Positions 166 through 19,424 of a stretch of DNA of 25,300 bases are shown here, one piece after another. The stretch lies in the NCBI GenBank assembly GCA_050292255.1, contig JBNKLH010000001.1:1-25300 (forward strand). The letters run 5' to 3'. The DNA is from Candidatus Altimarinota bacterium (GTDB lineage Bacteria > Patescibacteriota > Gracilibacteria > UBA4473). The notes under the pieces are model-generated. The model was not told the DNA's origin. It did not search any database and saw only the letters and a list, made by a program, of their open reading frames with translations. Each line of letters starts with the position of its first letter. Position 1 is the first letter of the stretch. A program made the position numbers and the translations under genes.

Positions 166-1545
166 CTATTTGTTTTTCAAGTCTGGGTGGTATTTGTCCA
201 AAGTTTTTTGGTTAATACGTTTGAGCTCTGTGATTGGGAATGGTCGGAGCAATTCCCATCCGAGTTCGAGAGACTCGAGGATAGTTCGTTCTTTATCAAA
301 TCCTTGTCCGAGGAATTCTTTTTCGTATTTGTCCGCAAATTCGAGGTAGACTTTATCGATGTCAGAAAGAGAACTTTCTCCCAACACCACTGCCAACTCA
401 CGAACATCTTTCCCACGTGCGTAACACGCAAAGAGTTGATCTTTCAATTTTGAGTGGTCTTCTCGTGTTTTTCCTTCTCCCATTCCGGCACCAGCCAATC
501 GTGAAAGAGATTTCAATACGTCCACTGGAGGAGATACTTTCTTTTGGTGGAGACCTCGGTCAAGCACGAATTGCCCCTCAGTAATATATCCAGTAAGGTC
601 TGGAATTGGGTGAGTAATATCGTCTTCTGGCATTGAAAGAATCGGGATTTGAGTCACAGACCCTTTTGCCGTTCGGATTCGTCCCGCTCGTTCGTAGATC
701 GTAGAAAGGTCGGTATAGAGGTACCCTGGGTATCCTCGTCGTCCTGGAACCTCTTTACGAGCCGCAGACACTTCTCGCAACGCCTCAGCGTAGTTGGTCA
801 TGTCTGTCAAAATCACGAGCACGTGCATGTCTTTTTCGAAAGCCAAGTATTCAGCCAAAGTCAAAGCCATTCGTGGCACCGCAATACGTTCAACCACAGG
901 ATCGGCCGCAGTGTTCAAGAACAAACAAGCGTTTTCAATCGCTCCTGTTCGTTCGAATTCTCGTTGGAAGAACATCGCTTCCTCAAAGGTCACTCCCATC
1001 GCTCCGAAAACCACCGCGAAGTCTGATCCGTCGTTCACTTTCGCTTGACGCGCGATTTGTGTCGCGAGTTCGGCGTGTGGAAGTCCTGATCCAGAGAACA
1101 CTGGCAATTTTTGTCCTCGCACGAGCGTGTTCATCACATCGAGTGAAGAAACTCCTGTTTGGATGAAGTCGGAAGGGAATGTTCGTGAAGCTGGGTTGAT
1201 AGCGGCTCCAGAAATGTCCAACACTTTTTCAGGAAGGATTTCTGCTCCACCATCGATTGGGTTTCCGGCTCCGTTGAAGATTCGTCCGAGCATGTCAGGT
1301 GACACTCCTAGTTGGAGCACTTTCCCGAGGAATTTTGCTTTCAACCCGTCTGTTGAAAGTCCTTGTGTTGATTCGAACATTTGAACCAACGCTCGATCTT
1401 TGTGGGCTTCGAGCACTTTACCCATTTTGGTATCACCGTTGGGAAGGGTTACTTCTACCAACTCTTCGTATTTAGCTCCTTCTACGCCGTCCACAACCAA
1501 AATAGGACCGGCAATCGAGCTGACGGAATCGTACGTTTTTTGCAT
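166..1545 (-). CDS. ntpB: V/A-type ATP synthase subunit B
   Basis: Motifs [46 protein letters not shown] and [18 protein letters not shown]. No Walker A GKT, as expected for the non-catalytic B subunit. Confidence 0.97.
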
Positions 1546-2497: not shown

Positions 2498-2535
2498 TAT
2501 TATCGAACTTTTATTAACTTTTAAGCTTACAGAAA

Positions 2536-3009
2536 ATGGAACGAACGCTTGTGATTTTGAAACCGGATTGTTTGCAGCGAGGACTGGTGGGGGAGGCGAT
2601 TCAGCGATTTGAGAGACGTGGTCTCAAGATCGTGGCGATGAAATTAGAAAAACTCACCGATGCTATTTTGGAAGAACACTATGCCCATGTGGCTCATTTG
2701 CCATTTTTCCCAGAGATGCGAGCGTATATGCAATCATCACCTGTTTTGGTGATGGTCTTAGAAGGGCCGAATGCGGTAGAATGTGTGCGGCAGACAGCGG
2801 GGATAGAGGCGACAGATTTGGGGTCTTTCCGTGGTGATTATTCAGGGTTTGTGACGAAAGGATGTCTCAAGAAAAATCTCATCCATACATCTGACTCCGT
2901 AGAGAATGCAAAAGTTGAGATTGCTCGATTTCTAAAACCAGAGGACATCATGGAATGGAAATCAGTCCTCTTGCCAGAAATGTTTTCTCCAAAGGAATGG
3001 GAGAAATAA
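2536..3009 (+). CDS. ndk: nucleoside diphosphate kinase
   Basis: MERTLVILKPDCLQRGLVGE N-terminus and catalytic NLIHTSDS motif. Confidence 0.95.
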   Translation: MERTLVILKPDCLQRGLVGEAIQRFERRGLKIVAMKLEKLTDAILEEHYAHVAHLPFFPEMRAYMQSSPVLVMVLEGPNAVECVRQTAGIEATDLGSFRGDYSGFVTKGCLKKNLIHTSDSVENAKVEIARFLKPEDIMEWKSVLLPEMFSPKEWEK

Positions 3010-3040
3010 AAATGTCTTTAATTTTCTAAACTATTTGGTC

Positions 3041-3292
3041 ATGGTAAATGAAGTATTGGGAGGGGATGATCTATTGGATTTCCTTGGTGATTCAAAGAAA
3101 AACAAAGAAAAAGAAGTGACTCCTCAGCAGCTTGCGGATTTGGTGAATCAGATGGAAAACGGGGAAGAAGGGGCCTTTTCTTTAAACATAGGGGGCGTGG
3201 TGAGAAAGGTTATTTGCACAAAGGATGAGAAGGGAGAATTTGATATGAAAGAAGCGCCCGGAAGAGATATGGGTGTTATTGGAAACTCATAA
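3041..3292 (+). CDS. hypothetical 83 aa protein, possibly a distant member of the small-protein array family
   Basis: Open ATG-TAA frame filling the gap after ndk. GGVVRKVICTKDEKGEFDMKE resembles GGDFRGYVKKDAQGRLVIVE of 4996..5235, but the C-terminal FN helix is absent. Confidence 0.6.
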   Translation: MVNEVLGGDDLLDFLGDSKKNKEKEVTPQQLADLVNQMENGEEGAFSLNIGGVVRKVICTKDEKGEFDMKEAPGRDMGVIGNS

Positions 3293-3369
3293 GTTCTTGA
3301 CTTTTTCGTAGAAATTAGTATTTATATCTCGTGAGATTTTTGTCTTTTGAGGAAGAATGAAAATTTCTC

Positions 3370-3456
3370 GTTGATCTTTTACAGCACTTATTTTGATTCT
3401 TGGTATCATTTTTCTCATGGACATGTGGGAAGGAGGATGCCAAGAGATCTTGGTAT
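3370..3456 (+). repeat. 87 bp structured leader, copy 1 (upstream of array unit 1)
   Basis: 81/87 identical to 3866..3952. Contains CTTGGTATC...GATGCCAAG...CTTGGTATC alternative pairing arms and GGAAGGAGG. Confidence 0.9.
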
Positions 3457-3492
3457 CTAAATGAAATTGTTAACTCTTTAAATATAATTTTT

Positions 3493-3735
3493 ATGGTAAT
3501 TAAAACATGGTCTTCCTCAGGGAAATTAGAAGCAACTACGTTGAATGAAATCAAAGAAGATTTACAGAAAAATCCTCAGAATTGGAAATTGGTTCAAGCG
3601 GAATCAGGATCCATTTTATTTAACGGTTATCTCGATGTTAATGGAGAAGGAAAACTTATTGTAGTCCAAGACTTAGATTCGTTGGAGAACGGAGAGGAAT
3701 GGATGAAGGAAGAGTTGGAAAAGTTTAATAAATAA
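3493..3735 (+). CDS. small hypothetical protein, array paralogue 1 (80 aa)
   Basis: ATG 3493 gives the same length as the paralogues. Family motifs TTLNEIKE, WKLVQAESG, FNGYL and EELEKFNK. Confidence 0.85.
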   Translation: MVIKTWSSSGKLEATTLNEIKEDLQKNPQNWKLVQAESGSILFNGYLDVNGEGKLIVVQDLDSLENGEEWMKEELEKFNK

Positions 3736-3757
3736 AGAATAAGTGTTTAAAAGAATA

Positions 3758-3790
3758 GGGTGTCTTCTAAGTAAGGCATCCTTCCTTTTG
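3758..3790 (+). terminator. terminator closing array unit 1
   Basis: GGGTGTCTT-ctaagt-AAGGCATCC followed by TTCCTTTT. 3761-3784 matches 5257-5280 at 23/24 nt. Confidence 0.7.
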
Positions 3791-3865
3791 TTATTTGACT
3801 TTTTTGTGTTTATGTTTATTTGTGTGTTGTGGGATTGCTGTCCATTTTGTGAACAGTTGTTTCCG

Positions 3866-3952
3866 GTTGATCTTTTACAGCACTTATTTTGATTCTTGGT
3901 ATCGTTTTTCTCATGAATATGTGGGAAGGAGGATGCCAAGGATTCTTGGTAT
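3866..3952 (+). repeat. 87 bp structured leader, copy 2 (upstream of array unit 2)
   Basis: Direct repeat of 3370..3456 at an offset of 496 bp, with 6 differences. Confidence 0.9.
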
Positions 3953-3982
3953 GAAATTGAGTATAAACCAAAAAATAATGAT

Positions 3983-4222
3983 ATGAAATTAGAACAAGAA
4001 GGTGGTGGTCCAATACACTTTTCGGAAGTATTGGGACTGGCTCTTGATGGAAACCTGGTGAGCGTGAATGCTGACTTTGGAAATGGGAATAAAATCTCGT
4101 GTTGTCTGAAAGTGGATGCAATAGATTGTTTGATTATTTATGAGAGGCAGAAGGTTGTTTCTCAGGGAAATGCTCAGTATTTATTGCAAAGAGCATTAGA
4201 TAATTTTAATAACGGTTTTTAG
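3983..4222 (+). CDS. small hypothetical protein, array paralogue 2 (79 aa)
   Basis: VSVNADFG and QGNAQYLLQRALDNFNNGF match the family pattern. Confidence 0.82.
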   Translation: MKLEQEGGGPIHFSEVLGLALDGNLVSVNADFGNGNKISCCLKVDAIDCLIIYERQKVVSQGNAQYLLQRALDNFNNGF

Positions 4223-4239
4223 TTAGAAAGGAGGAATGT

Positions 4240-4470
4240 ATGAATTTATCACTAGAAAAGGGATCTCAAACTACATTACAGGCTATAAAAGATCTGTTGG
4301 ATGGAGATTGGCATCAAGTACAGGTAGTTGCTGATTTTCTAAAACCAAAAGTCTCTCTTGTTGCACACTTACAATTTGATGAAAAGAAAAAAATTATTCA
4401 TTCGGTTGTAATGGCAGATGATGGAGCTTCCGCTCTTTTGAAAAAAGAATTAGAAAAATTTAACGGTTAA
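4240..4470 (+). CDS. small hypothetical protein, array paralogue 3 (76 aa)
   Basis: SD AAGGAGG at 4228-4234. Motifs TTLQAIKD, WHQVQVVADF and KELEKFNG. Confidence 0.88.
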   Translation: MNLSLEKGSQTTLQAIKDLLDGDWHQVQVVADFLKPKVSLVAHLQFDEKKKIIHSVVMADDGASALLKKELEKFNG

Positions 4471-4484
4471 AAAAAAGGAGGATT

Positions 4485-4721
4485 ATGAACTTATTTAAAA
4501 ATGAGAAAGAGCAGTTCGTGCCAACTACTTTGCAGGAGGTCAAAGATGCTTCCGGATCATCCAGTTTTTGGGTGCCGGTAAAAGCTGAGTTCGGGGATGA
4601 TGAAGTTTTCGAAGGTTCGCTAAAACAGGACTGGAATAAACTTCAGATTATCGATACTACATCTGATACAGGTGGTGCGAAGCAGAAGCTTCAGCAAGAA
4701 ATTGATAACTTTAATGCTTAA
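4485..4721 (+). CDS. small hypothetical protein, array paralogue 4 (78 aa)
   Basis: SD AAGGAGG at 4475-4481. Motifs TTLQEVKD, WVPVKAEFG, FEGSL and QEIDNFNA. Confidence 0.88.
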   Translation: MNLFKNEKEQFVPTTLQEVKDASGSSSFWVPVKAEFGDDEVFEGSLKQDWNKLQIIDTTSDTGGAKQKLQQEIDNFNA

Positions 4722-4735
4722 GAAGGGAGGTTTGT

Positions 4736-4978
4736 ATGAATCTTGTTGTCTTTACTGAAACGGGTGGACATGAAGAGTCCTCCCTTCAAGAAATTTTTAC
4801 ATCTTTGGAGGGAAAGACTGATTCGATTCAAGTTTTAGCCCAGAATACAAAGGAATCAGGAAATGTTTTCCACGGCTATGTTTCTCGAAATGGAAATAAA
4901 CTTGAAGCCAGTGATTTGGATTCTCTTGGTGAAGGATTTGAATGGTTTGAAAATGAATTAAAAGGTTTTAATCAATAA
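4736..4978 (+). CDS. small hypothetical protein, array paralogue 5 (80 aa)
   Basis: SD GGGAGGT at 4725-4731. Motifs SSLQEIF, FHGYV, DLDSLGEG and NELKGFNQ. Confidence 0.88.
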   Translation: MNLVVFTETGGHEESSLQEIFTSLEGKTDSIQVLAQNTKESGNVFHGYVSRNGNKLEASDLDSLGEGFEWFENELKGFNQ

Positions 4979-4995
4979 TTGAAAAGGAGGTTGGA

Positions 4996-5235
4996 ATGCA
5001 AATAATAGTATGGAAAAACGGACGTCCTCAGGATTCCTCATTAGCGGACATTGCTGATTCTTTATCGAATAAAGATTGGAAAGAGGTAATGGTTAAAGAA
5101 GAAGGTGGGGATTTTCGTGGGTATGTTAAAAAAGATGCTCAAGGGAGATTAGTCATTGTTGAGGGGAACGATATTTCTTCAACAGGAACGGCGAAAGCAA
5201 GTTTCCAAAACAAGTTAAAGGAATTTAACAATTAA
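4996..5235 (+). CDS. small hypothetical protein, array paralogue 6 (79 aa)
   Basis: SD AAGGAGGT at 4984-4991. Motifs SSLADIAD, WKEVMVKEEG, FRGYV and KLKEFNN. Confidence 0.88.
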   Translation: MQIIVWKNGRPQDSSLADIADSLSNKDWKEVMVKEEGGDFRGYVKKDAQGRLVIVEGNDISSTGTAKASFQNKLKEFNN

Positions 5236-5251
5236 GTGCATGTAAAAAGGT

Positions 5252-5287
5252 AAGGATGTCTTCTTAGTAAGGCATCCTTCTTTTTTT
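5252..5287 (+). terminator. terminator closing array unit 2
   Basis: AAGGATGTCTT-cttagt-AAGGCATCCTT followed by CTTTTTTT. Confidence 0.85.
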
Positions 5288-5337
5288 ATACAAAAAACTT
5301 GAAACTGAACACATTTCTGGTACATTCGGAGGTGAAT

Positions 5338-7902
5338 ATGTCCTTTTTGGGCGTTTCCCTAAAAAAAACAAATATGAAAAAATATCCCCTCTTTTTCGGA
5401 GTTTTGTGCCTGTCTATCCTCGGAAGCGCGTCTGCGGCTTCTTTTGCGGATGTAGAAATCACACATGACAATTATCAAGCGATTCAGTTTTTTGCCGATA
5501 ACGGACTGATCGAAGGAAATATGAAAGACGGGAAACAATTCTTTCGTGGGTTTGATAAAGTCACCCGAGCGGAGGCTTTGAAGGTTTTGCTTTTGGCGGC
5601 GCAAGTGTCACCGGCAGAAGTAGAGAGTTCACGATTTTCGGATGTAGATCAAAATGCGTGGTATGCACCATACGTAAATACAGCCGTCGAACGGGGGATT
5701 GTCGACGGATTTGCTGATGGAATGTTTTATCCAGGCGTAGAAGTGAGACGAGCGCAGTTGCTGAAAATGGCTACGCTCGCGTTCGGGGCTGATGAGTCTC
5801 TTTATTTTGCGACAGACTGGGAGGCCGAAATGACAGAAATGGTGGAGGATGAAATGCCTATGCCAGAAGAGGAAGAATCGGTCGACGGATTTGATTGGCA
5901 ACCAGAAGAAGAATTCCAGCCATGGTATGAAGACTATATGAACTTTGCGATCTTTATGCGAGTAGAAGAAGATCCAAAAGCTGATCCAGAAGAAACGCTC
6001 ACTCGTGCCGAAATGGCAGAGATTTTGTATCGAATGTATATCCTTTCTCAGGATAACTTCGAAGAACCATTTGTTTATATGGGGAGTGGGGCCGCGAGTT
6101 ATTATGGAGCGGGGTTTTCAGGAAAGAAGACCGCCAGTGGTGAGATCTACGATCCAGAGGATTTGACGGCTGCTCATCGGACGCTTCCTTTTGGGACAAA
6201 ACTAAAAGTAACCTACGGAGATAAATCAGTCGTTGTGCGTGTGAATGATCGAGGACCGTATCATAATTCTCGTGAGCTCGATTTGTCAGAAAGAGCCTTT
6301 GGGTTATTGGCTCCGATCGAACGGGGGATTATAGAAGTCGATTATGAAGTCTATCATGGAAGTGATGACCAAATGCCCGCTATTCCGGAGTTTGTCAGGG
6401 ATTCTTTGTCCACGGATGCCAAGAATGCACCTGTCCCAGAAGCGGTTTCGGAAAAGGTTATGGAGTATCGAGATCAGGGAGTAATGCCTTCTCAATTACG
6501 GGTGCAACCTTTGTTTAATGGAACGGTTCCGCATATTGCCACAGACTTCTTTGATGGAGTGACGATGCGACGAGAATTTGCTCAGAAGGTACCGGTAGGA
6601 ACAATTTTGAATTTCTCAGGAAGTGTCGAAGAACTCGGACACAAAGAAGTAACCGTTTTCTTTGAACGATTTGCTGATCGAAACTATCCAACCCCTCAAC
6701 AGACTCTTTATACGGGGAAAATTTCAGGGAAAAACTTCGCCTTCCCGTTGCCATTTTTACGAATTGGAAAATACAAAATGGGGGTTGTGATCGATGATCA
6801 AAAGAAATCAAAAGTAGCAGAGATTCAGGTTCAACCGGCAGATTTGATTCAGCATTTTCCTTCAGCAGAAGAAGATCTTTCGCTTTTTGAAGGAGCGGAA
6901 TACGGATTTAAAGTGATCCCAGAAGAAAAGATTTTAGAGTTCGAAACCTTTGGGTTTAGTCCGCGTCATTTACAGAAATTAATTCTTTCTCAGAATGGAA
7001 AATTCCTCACGCTCAACATAGAAAGCCAAGAAAAGGCCGTGCCTTTGGCGTACTCATTCTTTCGGGACAATAAATTCACAGAAGGACCGATGAAAGTCGA
7101 AGTCTATGCGGCGGATTCTCGATTGGGGACATTGGCTTCTCGATCTATGAACTGGCAAAAGTTGGGAGAAGAATCTTTTGAGGTGATTGAAGGATTCCCA
7201 GATGAAGAAAGTGATAAGGTGGCAATCTTTGAATTCCCACGATTTTCTCATACGCTTGAGCCTTTTACACTTGCCGGGAAAACATTGGATTCACGGGTGA
7301 ATTTGGGAGCACATGCTTATCTCCTAACTCCAAGTCAAAAAATCAGAAAACTCCCGATCATTGATCGAAGTGAATACGGAGATTTTGCGATTTGGGTAAA
7401 TCCACAAGACTGGGGAACACACGTATTGGAAATTGTAGCCGATGACGGGACGATCCTCTTTAACCGGGGAATGTACTTTTCCAAAGATATCGTGTTGCCG
7501 GTTTTGGACTGGAATAAATTGGAAGTCCGTGGAAACAATAAAGTCGCTGTGCGAGATTGGATCAACCAATTCCGGACGAAAATGGGAGTGACCTTGCTCG
7601 CGAATGATCCAGAACTTGAAAAAATTGCCCAGACATATGCCACTCAAATGGCAGAAGATGACTTTATTTCTCATACGAGTCCGACCGGTCTCACATTCGA
7701 GCAACGAATCAAATCGGCAGGATTGCAGGGGGCTTATGCTGAAAATCTTAGTTTTTCTGGAAATCTTGAAGATGCCCTGGATGGAATCAAAAACTCAAGT
7801 TCTCATTATCAAAATGTGATTGGAAACCAATGGCGAAAAGTGGGGATTGGGGTAGCTAATAGTGCCAAAGGTGTTTATGTCGTCCAGATATTTGGTCGCT
7901 AG
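5338..7902 (+). CDS. secreted SLH-domain protein with an RlpA-like (DPBB) domain and a C-terminal CAP/SCP domain
   Basis: Signal peptide (MKKYPLFFGVLCLSILGSASA). SLH repeats (FADV...VTRAEALKVLL; FSDVDQNAWYAPYV...GFADGMFYP...). RlpA motif ASYYG...TASGE...TAAHRTLPFGT...NDRGP...LDLS. CAP motif INQFR...FISHTSPTG...AENL...HYQNV...VGIG. Start is 5338 (SD GGAGGTG at 5328-5334) or 5374. Confidence 0.9.
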   Translation: MSFLGVSLKKTNMKKYPLFFGVLCLSILGSASAASFADVEITHDNYQAIQFFADNGLIEGNMKDGKQFFRGFDKVTRAEALKVLLLAAQVSPAEVESSRFSDVDQNAWYAPYVNTAVERGIVDGFADGMFYPGVEVRRAQLLKMATLAFGADESLYFATDWEAEMTEMVEDEMPMPEEEESVDGFDWQPEEEFQPWYEDYMNFAIFMRVEEDPKADPEETLTRAEMAEILYRMYILSQDNFEEPFVYMGSGAASYYGAGFSGKKTASGEIYDPEDLTAAHRTLPFGTKLKVTYGDKSVVVRVNDRGPYHNSRELDLSERAFGLLAPIERGIIEVDYEVYHGSDDQMPAIPEFVRDSLSTDAKNAPVPEAVSEKVMEYRDQGVMPSQLRVQPLFNGTVPHIATDFFDGVTMRREFAQKVPVGTILNFSGSVEELGHKEVTVFFERFADRNYPTPQQTLYTGKISGKNFAFPLPFLRIGKYKMGVVIDDQKKSKVAEIQVQPADLIQHFPSAEEDLSLFEGAEYGFKVIPEEKILEFETFGFSPRHLQKLILSQNGKFLTLNIESQEKAVPLAYSFFRDNKFTEGPMKVEVYAADSRLGTLASRSMNWQKLGEESFEVIEGFPDEESDKVAIFEFPRFSHTLEPFTLAGKTLDSRVNLGAHAYLLTPSQKIRKLPIIDRSEYGDFAIWVNPQDWGTHVLEIVADDGTILFNRGMYFSKDIVLPVLDWNKLEVRGNNKVAVRDWINQFRTKMGVTLLANDPELEKIAQTYATQMAEDDFISHTSPTGLTFEQRIKSAGLQGAYAENLSFSGNLEDALDGIKNSSSHYQNVIGNQWRKVGIGVANSAKGVYVVQIFGR

Positions 7903-18625: not shown

Positions 18626-19012
18626 TTATTGACGGTTAAGTGTTTTTAATGCGGCTTTTAACTCTTTCCTCAGAACCTTTTTTGGATTCTTTCTTACCAC
18701 CCACCCCGGATAACTCGCTATATTCCAGTTATCATCACGGATTTCAAATAATCCATATCCGATCTTGGGAAATCCAATTTCCCAAGAGTTAATGTTTTTA
18801 TTGACGCTTCCTTTATAAAACTTGAGCGTCTCTGTCTTGTAAAAAACAGAGTATGGAGACAACAAAAGGTTATACTCCACAGTATCTTCCTTTGCTATTT
18901 CTACCAATACGAGCTCTTCGAGCTCACACACGAGAGACTTTATACTTTGCGCTTCTACAGCAGAAACTGAAAAAAAGAAAACCATCCCTAAAACTAAAAA
19001 ATATTTCTTCAT
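18626..19012 (-). CDS. hypothetical secreted protein (128 aa)
   Basis: Signal peptide MKKYFLVLGMVFFFSVSAVEA and its own terminator; no recognisable domain. Confidence 0.7.
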   Translation of the reverse strand: MKKYFLVLGMVFFFSVSAVEAQSIKSLVCELEELVLVEIAKEDTVEYNLLLSPYSVFYKTETLKFYKGSVNKNINSWEIGFPKIGYGLFEIRDDNWNIASYPGWVVRKNPKKVLRKELKAALKTLNRQ

Positions 19013-19424
19013 AATCGAGAATTTAATTGATTAATAAATAAAAAATGCTCGCAATTCTTCTGATAATTCAAAAAAATTACCAGCATTTTCCAATACTAAC
19101 CTTTCACTCAACCGTTATCTCAAAGAGCTATGTAGGAAACTTTCGAATCCCAAAGGATTAAAAATTTCACAATAAAAAAATAATACTTCTTCTTATTTTT
19201 GTCAATGATCTGTGAATTGTATTGCGATCATATTGCTGAAAGATGAATTGGAAAAGATTCAAGTAAGTTCTCATTAGTGCTCCTTCTCCATCTAGCCAAA
19301 ACAGACAAAATATCCCTTTGTAAGTAGGACTCTTTCATCGGATCCAGAAAGTGATTTGGGAATACTCAAAAAACACAAAAGCAACCGAAGTAGTTCGGTC
19401 ACAATTATGTATTAGTGCTCAAAA

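Follow-up and report, generated by a model that had tools for sequence, protein, structure and literature searches.

A Two-Hairpin Leader RNA with a boxA-like Motif Precedes Small-Protein Genes in a Gracilibacteria Genome

What is the role of a sequence that stands, nearly unchanged, at the head of two neighboring transcription units? This question is raised by a stretch of 25,300 nucleotides (nt) from a Candidatus Altimarinota bacterium of the Gracilibacteria (positions 1 to 25,300 of contig JBNKLH010000001.1, assembly GCA_050292255.1), hereafter referred to as the window, in which an 87-bp sequence at positions 3370-3456 recurs at positions 3866-3952 with 81/87 identical positions. The repeat had been interpreted in an initial annotation of this DNA as an unnamed cis-regulatory RNA switch (attenuator, thermometer or protein-responsive element) in which mutually exclusive hairpins cover a Shine-Dalgarno (SD)-like motif. 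Based on RNA folding, covariance models and genome comparison, it is described here as part of a conserved structured leader RNA, for which a constitutive role resembling that of ribosomal RNA (rRNA) operon leaders is cautiously favored.

Structure of the Duplicated Leader

The 87-bp repeat is composed of a boxA-like motif, a long hairpin (P2) and the start of an alternative short hairpin (P3), that is, the 3' two-thirds of a leader of approximately 140 nt. In this leader, a promoter (TTGACT-N16-TAnnnn) is followed by a putative transcription start at GUG, a first hairpin (P1), the single-stranded sequence GAUCUUUUACA and P2. The ungapped repeat is wider than previously noted (3364-3464 and 3860-3960, 90/101 identical), the conserved element begins about 40 nt further upstream (3331 and 3829), and in the alignment the similarity of both intergenic regions begins at TTGACT (3297 and 3795). 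The 5' hairpin, the boxA-like motif, a third copy in the window and a family of about 30 members had also been missed.

In unit 1, a promoter-like site consisting of TTGACT (3297-3302), a spacer of 16 nt and TATTTA (3319-3324) precedes P1 (3331-3369), which, in a boxB-like position, is predicted to form the transcript's 5' end and was obtained both as the minimum free energy (MFE) structure and by RNAalifold on six copies. The boxA-like motif GATCTTTTACA (3373-3383) is followed by P2 (3395-3448; -25 kcal/mol when folded alone) with its U-rich 5' arm and a purine-rich 3' arm containing GGGAAGGAGG-ATG. The corresponding elements of unit 2, likewise on the plus strand, are TTGACT (3795-3800), a 16-nt spacer and TATTTG (3817-3822), P1 (3829-3866; diverged in sequence with 17/40 ungapped identity to copy 1, the fold being kept), the motif GATCTTTTACA (3869-3879) and P2 (3891-3944; -29.2 kcal/mol alone). 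Furthermore, the competing short hairpin GAUGCCAAG/CUUGGUAUC described by the initial annotation does exist: arm GATGCCAAG, which is common to P2 and P3, is able to pair with the downstream CTTGGTATC, and the resulting P3 spans 3436-3457 in copy 1 (-11.3 kcal/mol, z-score -6.3 versus shuffled tails) and 3932-3953 in copy 2 (-9.6 kcal/mol alone).

The strand-specific fold postulated earlier was also borne out. Within the 101-nt frame, both copies adopt the long hairpin as their MFE structure on the plus strand (-29.7 and -31.9 kcal/mol, z-scores -3.0 and -3.9), whereas the minus strand reaches -12.4 and -9.2 kcal/mol (z-scores -0.4 and +0.3) and performs no better than shuffled sequences, as expected from the argument that G-U pairs make the hairpin work on one strand only. 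The six differences between the copies are located at the claimed positions 3408, 3420, 3422 and 3445-3447. Moreover, each copy heads a transcription unit that starts with the promoter-like TTGACT at 3297 or 3795 and ends with an intrinsic terminator at 3757-3782 or 5252-5279 (+).

A Family of Leader RNAs

Since a BLAST-type DNA search for the leader in 60 relatives returned chance-level matches only, further copies were sought by means of covariance models. The first model was built from six close copies, namely the two window copies and four more diverged tandem copies on contig C106, each located 5' of an open reading frame (ORF) of 60-90 amino acids (aa). Additional copies were detected with it both in this genome and in related genera. 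The second model (R2) was built from 26 sequences. In the own assembly, which comprises 247 contigs (1.17 Mb) and is 94.7% complete, R2 recognized 23 copies at a cut-off of E < 0.01. Three of them are located in the window, at 3331-3467 (+), 3829-3964 (+) and 19020-19170 (-); the third, diverged copy (49.6 bits, E 1.6e-9, filters off) lies 5' of a gene (18626-19012, -) whose 128-aa product carries a signal peptide. A pattern anchored at the promoter (TTGAC, TA, GTG, and GNTCTTT 30-70 nt further on) matched 40 times in the genome compared with 6 times in the reversed genome.

All copies are co-oriented and situated between a promoter and an ORF. The six close copies share the order TTGAC(T/G), 16 nt, TATTTN, 6-7 nt, GTG, a variable P1, GATCTTT(T/G)A and P2, and most copies of the family carry TTGAC(T/A)-N16/17-TAnnnn 6-8 nt 5' of GTG. 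R2 also detected the leader in g2, g5, g6 and g16, four further genera of the taxonomic family to which this genome belongs. Of 150 sampled genomes of the class, 135 represent other families, and 2 of these 135 gave matches, all of them weak (E > 1e-4). A pattern scan of metagenomes for the SD-like variant of P2 yielded 37 stretches, none of which was recognized by R2; this variant was found in the own genome only. A further copy is present on contig C139 (minus strand, approximately positions 1-215), in which the promoter, P1 and GATCTTTTACAGCAC are identical to the window copies over 15 nt and the downstream hairpin is a different one, devoid of an SD-like arm. Accordingly, the 5' module and P2 look exchangeable.

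Conservation of the fold was evaluated on the 26-sequence alignment, in which 92.0% of the cells are standard pairs, compared with 65.8% after shuffling and 46-61% with partners slid, the alignment having been fitted to the covariance model and hence being biased in favor of structure. On these sequences, changes on both sides were observed for 32/35 pairs (14/14 in P1 and 18/21 in P2), and 95-97% of the P2 cells are paired across the family. RNAalifold on a plain, unfitted MAFFT alignment of the six close copies also yielded P1 and P2 as above, both partners being altered in 12 pairs. The stems of diverged copies are thus maintained by compensatory changes, and the substitutions spread through the stems that the initial annotation had named as counter-evidence were not observed in uncompensated form. 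An Rfam scan of window positions 2500-5600 with E-values up to 10 gave nothing relevant. Likewise, there was neither a match to a curated riboswitch model nor a junction resembling a ligand pocket, P2 being a simple stem-loop interrupted by one or two mismatches.

Based on these results, a conserved structured leader RNA is proposed with high confidence, and the RNA family is new in that it has no Rfam match. The earlier description as an unnamed, strand-specific and cis-located structured RNA consequently stands; its part concerning a switch that operates by SD sequestration does not, for reasons given below.

A boxA-like Motif in the Layout of rRNA Operon Leaders

The sole near-invariant unpaired block of the family is G(A/U/C)UCUUU(G/U/C)A, placed directly after P1. 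The window copies read GAUCUUUUACA, others GAUCUUUGA(C/A)A or GUUCUUUGACA, and several carry GAUCUUUGA exactly as in the boxA consensus of the Bacillus subtilis rRNA operons (rrn). The window copies match 8/10 specified positions of the boxA consensus. As deduced from individual folds, from the consensus structure and, regarding the start, from promoter geometry, the motif is predicted to be unpaired, promoter-proximal and located right after a hairpin.

For comparison, the rrn boxA of Escherichia coli is UGCUCUUUAACA, and the rrn operons of B. subtilis feature a small 5'-terminal hairpin immediately followed by boxA AUGAUCUUUGAAA, which is bound by B. subtilis NusB (PMC13753749). The search consensus for gamma-proteobacterial boxA is GYTCTTTAANA (PMC5725501), and the elements of rrn leaders occur in the order boxB-like hairpin, boxA, boxC (PMC6614801). 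The rrn leader of the own genome comprises, in this order, a promoter of similar type, one 5' hairpin and a further small one, unpaired GGCUCUUUUUCA and another hairpin, and four relatives possess G(C/U)UCUUUUUCAUUUCG at the same place. The rrn and mRNA leaders have the GYUCUUU core in common and differ at positions 8-11. Hence, the mRNA leaders appear to be organized like those of rRNA operons, with boxA between a 5' hairpin and a second hairpin, and the motif is therefore read as a boxA that would load NusB-S10 and other Nus factors. NusB is encoded in the genome (C39:7476-7847, -; 89.9 bits), as are one NusG, RNase III and RNase Y. Both rRNA-maturation factors considered here are linked on contig C39 (6702-7847, -), where nusB (7476-7847) is about 400 nt away from the co-directional gene for RNase III, whose domain is encoded at 6702-7082.

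The following sequence of events is envisaged. A sigma-70-type promoter would fire and the transcript would begin at GUG, the nascent RNA folding at once into P1, which would cap its 5' end. The exposed single-stranded motif G-N-UCUUU-(G/U)-AC may then recruit NusB-S10 and further Nus factors to RNA polymerase. The long and very stable P2 would form constitutively, followed 20-50 nt later, after an A/U-rich stretch, by the start codon of the small gene. Loading of Nus factors would allow fast transcription of the untranslated leader and the short gene, resistant to pausing and termination, and their expression may be coupled to the status of ribosome synthesis. P1 and P2 would accordingly act as constitutive structural elements rather than as a two-state sensor, providing protection of the 5' end, spacing and insulation of an SD-less start; P2 is possibly also an RNase III site. 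The leader is thus probably, at odds slightly better than even, a constitutive module of the rRNA-leader type acting through boxA and Nus factors and not an SD switch.

Several observations weigh against this interpretation. The family's own rrn boxA differs from the mRNA-leader motif in its 3' half (UUUCA versus KACA), and the boxA of the window copies departs from the gamma-proteobacterial consensus at position 2 (A instead of Y) and at position 8 (U instead of A). Transcription of the leader and its start at GUG are themselves predictions from promoter geometry. Moreover, the Rho RNA-binding domain (Rho_RNA_bind) was not found in the 94.7%-complete genome, and for this reason the classic anti-Rho role of boxA cannot apply. 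Finally, the six SD-like copies keep the P2 sequence (window versus C106), the AUG within the arm and a P3 with compensatory changes, which hints at an additional function specific to this subfamily and outside the explanation favored here.

A broader proposal is more speculative and is regarded as rather unlikely. In this SD-less clade of Gracilibacteria, the rrn antitermination leader (5' hairpin, boxA, hairpin) might have been turned into a general expression cassette for approximately 3% of the genes, chiefly those encoding small secreted, lipo- and membrane proteins. These genes would form an envelope/effector regulon that is transcribed by Nus-modified polymerase and linked to free S10/NusB and hence to ribosome-synthesis status, to which the six-copy variant of the window might add a processing-dependent refolding from P2 to P3.

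Among the alternatives, a structured leader that functions without Nus factors survives best, being less probable than boxA-type loading and still deserving serious consideration. According to this explanation, the leader represents a generic cassette in which P1 counteracts 5'-end-dependent decay, P2 serves as insulator or RNase III site, the motif is a site for another protein or for cleavage, and P3 becomes a new protective 5' hairpin once the 5' arm of P2 has been removed. The structure is well supported, while the boxA identity is based on sequence resemblance; RNase III and RNase Y are encoded and Rho was not found; and P3 is the MFE structure after loss of the P2 5' arm. Yet such a cassette leaves unexplained why the invariant unpaired block repeats the core of boxA and why the order of the parts copies the rrn leaders of the own genome and of B. 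subtilis.

P2, P3 and the SD-like Arm

Across the family, the 5' arm of P2 keeps GUUUU, while the 3' arm varies (CAGGAU, CAGAAC, AAAGAG) and pairs by U-G or U-A; only the six close copies read GGAAGGAGG. GGAGG at -20 to -3 was detected before only 0.75% of 801 long ORFs. Furthermore, the 16S rRNA 3' tails of four related genera (G016, G013, G004 and G015) read GGAAUACCGCC or GGAUCAUCGCC at the anti-SD position, thus containing CCGCC or UCGCC in place of CCUCC; the own 16S rRNA gene is cut at a contig end (C110). Family genes begin 20-50 nt after P2 in A/U-rich, SD-less sequence, and in the window the start codons are 45-55 nt downstream of the P2 hairpin. Sequestration of an SD sequence is a poor description of P2 because the arm varies, GGAGG is rare, the anti-SD is altered in relatives and the starts lie far downstream. 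As a separate observation, internal genes of the arrays carry AGGAGG or GGGAGG 3-5 nt before ATG (window 4225-4239, 4470-4484 and 4722-4735; contig C106, locus L004, 2028-2046 and 2508-2520). In a genome otherwise devoid of SD sequences, such strong motifs are hard to reconcile with a CCGCC anti-SD.

The competition between the two hairpins is markedly one-sided. In full leaders at equilibrium, the pair probability of P2 is 0.998, compared with 3e-4 (copy 1) and 2e-6 (copy 2) for P3, and P3 becomes the MFE structure only once the 5' arm of P2 is removed. Since indels made column-wise counting of P3 pairs unworkable, P3 was assessed by folding the P2 3' arm of each sequence with its real tail versus shuffled tails. 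Significant P3 hairpins were obtained in 5/6 close copies (p 0.000-0.040), with compensatory changes (CCAAG/CUUGG versus CCAGAA/UUCUGG), as well as in 2/3 tandem copies of relative G004 and in one G030 copy; the C28 copy is marginal and about 15 other family members lack P3. P3 is a recurrent optional feature outside the family core. Its occurrence above chance level in some lineages makes conditional refolding possible in that subfamily. Neither P2 nor P3 qualified as an intrinsic terminator, given that no U-tract follows except after P3 of one C106 copy.

Both upstream ORFs (uORFs) described by the initial annotation were verified. In copy 1, the uORF MPRDLGI* (3437-3460, +) is directly followed by a mini-ORF (3461-3481) and by the gene start at 3493. 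In copy 2, the uORF MPRILGMKLSINQKIMI* (3933-3986, +) ends with a TGA that overlaps the ATG at 3983, so that the gene start is contained in ATGA. In two C106 copies, the ORF from the P2 AUG runs in frame into the main ORF, and in the remaining close copies it stops 11-33 nt before the gene start. The AUG within the arm occurs in roughly half of the members and is paired in both P2 and P3; the uORF, absent from many members, has 7 codons at its shortest and is fused in frame to the main ORF at its longest. The strongly one-sided equilibrium, the unconserved uORF and an AUG that is paired in both hairpins are additional reasons for rejecting an SD-sequestration switch.

Concerning the subtypes suggested initially, an attenuator is contradicted by the variable and often missing uORF and by the absence of P3 from about 15/26 members and of a U-tract behind it. 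A thermometer is contradicted by the stability of P2 (-25 and -29 kcal/mol, near-complete pairing), by gene starts located well downstream of it and by the scarcity of GGAGG before ORFs.

A switch limited to the six-copy subfamily is a different matter and is considered improbable. Here, P2 and P3 would be mutually exclusive states, responsive to a protein, the ribosome or temperature, that expose or hide GGAAGGAGG-AUG, and translation of the uORF would be relayed to the SD-less first gene. This alternative is consistent with the significance of P3 in 5/6 copies, its compensatory changes and its recurrence in G004, G030 and, marginally, C28, with the ORF from the P2 AUG overlapping, fusing with or ending near the main ORF, and with internal array genes carrying AGGAGG at proper spacing. 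However, P2 is 14-20 kcal/mol more stable than P3 and is transcribed first, the P3 probability is at most 3e-4, the AUG is paired in both states and the SD-to-AUG spacing amounts to 0-2 nt. In addition, the rarity of GGAGG before long ORFs and the CCGCC or UCGCC anti-SD of relatives argue against it, as do the lack of uORF and P3 in most family members, of a U-tract after P3 in 5/6 copies, of an Rfam match and of a junction resembling a ligand pocket.

The remaining two explanations are both very unlikely. At the DNA level, GATCTTT(T/G)ACA might be an operator or supply a second promoter with its -35 box, and proteins might bind to the inverted repeats as palindromes, given that TTGACA or TTTACA occurs within the motif in about two-thirds of the copies and that a few copies show TAnnnn 16-17 nt downstream when read by eye; but the best-conserved letters (G, TCTTT) are outside the -35 hexamer, no consistently spaced -10 box was found, and the stems are rich in G-U, fold on one strand and vary freely in sequence while pairing is kept. 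A mobile or recombining repeat that spreads promoter-leader modules, such as a miniature inverted-repeat transposable element, a repetitive extragenic palindrome or a cassette recombination site, would account for the multiple copies and for the 90/101 identity of the window leaders beside far more diverged proteins, with a sharp similarity boundary at 3364/3860, which suggests gene conversion; but terminal inverted repeats and target duplications were not seen, every copy is co-oriented between promoter and ORF at fixed distance, and most are highly diverged in sequence.

Comparison with Known Leaders

Nus factors and boxA are textbook components of rRNA synthesis, and only a handful of mRNA targets have been proven. 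The new aspect of the system described here is a two-hairpin, boxA-bearing leader present in about 30 copies in a 1.17-Mb genome, located ahead of small genes for envelope proteins in a lineage that makes little use of SD sequences and in which Rho was not found.

With the rrn antitermination signal (boxB-like hairpin, boxA and boxC, acted upon by NusA/B/E/G, SuhB and S4), the leader shares a promoter-proximal hairpin, an unpaired GNUCUUU(N)A and further structure. In contrast to rrn, it precedes about 30 small protein-coding genes instead of rRNA, its long hairpin is local and does not correspond to a leader-spacer helix, no boxC equivalent has been demonstrated and Rho was not found. Examples of boxA in mRNA leaders are known from suhB, rpsJ and a gene for a ParE-like toxin (Baniulyte et al. 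2017, PMC5725501). These occur 0-7 times per genome, at most 50 nt from the start codon, and act via repression of translation and Rho (PMC5725501). They and the boxA preceding CRISPR arrays resemble the present leader in that boxA stands ahead of non-rRNA genes, the mRNA cases implying Nus control beyond rRNA, but differ from it in number and position: here, about 30 copies per 1.17 Mb are located 90-120 nt upstream, inside a conserved two-hairpin fold and apparently without Rho.

Similarities to translational regulators are limited. As in fourU and ROSE thermometers, a U run pairs with AGGA by U-G and U-A in a hairpin of the 5' untranslated region (UTR), but with -25 to -29 kcal/mol the stability of this hairpin is far too high and the paired purines are not the ribosome-binding site of the gene, in a genome nearly free of SD sequences. 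Leader-peptide attenuators, either translational (erm/cat) or transcriptional (trp-type), likewise combine a short uORF with two competing hairpins, as seen in six copies; here, however, the uORF is unconserved, no U-tract follows P3 in 5/6 copies and the gene start is unsequestered. STAB-SD, the 5' mRNA stabilizer of Bacillus thuringiensis cry3A, lies unpaired close to the 5' end and depends on a canonical anti-SD. The SD-like GAAGGAGG in the 5' UTR, distant from the start codon served, is reminiscent of it, whereas the SD-like motif of the present leader is buried in P2 and unconserved.

Should the boxA interpretation be correct, boxA would act as a general regulon signal for some 30 small-protein genes, apparently without Rho or SD-led translation. 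It would also provide a handle on how bacteria of the candidate phyla radiation express lineage-specific surface and secreted proteins, which presumably mediate host dependence. Whatever the mechanism, the leader constitutes a new structured RNA family that is suited for RNA catalogues and for the annotation of transcription units in such uncultured genomes.

Genes Downstream of the Leaders

With about 50-460 aa, the proteins encoded behind the leaders are small, and most of them feature a signal peptide, a lipoprotein box or a membrane helix; the arrays of the window and of contig C106 encode small non-secreted proteins. In G004, leaders head a tandem array of secreted proteins of 130-150 aa, each with its own promoter and terminator. 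In the window, the sole gene of unit 1 (3493-3735, +) encodes 80 aa and lacks an SD sequence, and unit 2 contains five small paralogous genes (3983-5235, +) at 3983-4222, 4240-4470, 4485-4721, 4736-4978 and 4996-5235. The six array paralogues of about 80 aa show a mean column identity of 44% and 18-33% identity to the first one, and all end with F-N. Searches with the array proteins revealed no significant Pfam family and no usable Atlas match. An AlphaFold2 model of one of them (mean predicted local distance difference test score 91.4) adopts a beta-alpha-beta3-alpha fold, for which no convincing match was obtained in the PDB or among AlphaFold Database clusters (best E 0.35-0.42, TM approximately 0.5) and in which no RNA-binding fold was recognized that would back autoregulation.

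Pfam searches on ten other downstream proteins returned no family except one OMP_b-brl match. It concerns a 208-aa signal-peptide protein behind a leader at C28:3317-3940 (-; locus L103) with an E-value of 2e-8, above the curated cut-off. Bacteria of the candidate phyla radiation are thought to be without an outer membrane, and this match is therefore unexpected.

The terminators of both units (window 3749-3789 and 5245-5285) are 85% identical to each other. Their 3' arm and tail (GGCATCCTTCC) resemble the 5' arm of P2 and complement GGAAGGA..GGATGCC of its 3' arm with a 3-nt bulge, so that long-range 5'-3' pairing within the mRNA, between the terminator arm and the P2 3' arm, is conceivable from sequence complementarity.

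Among named genomes, those closest to the own genome are metagenome-assembled genomes of Candidatus Gracilibacteria / Peribacteria. The genetic code is the standard one; code 25 was dismissed, as 70/611 long ORFs end with TGA and translation with table 11 leaves long ORFs intact. Elsewhere in the window, positions 166-1545 (-) encode an ATPase subunit of the V/A type (ATP-synt_VA_C), whose nearest relatives outside the candidate phyla radiation are found in Firmicutes and Fusobacterium with approximately 63-66% identity.

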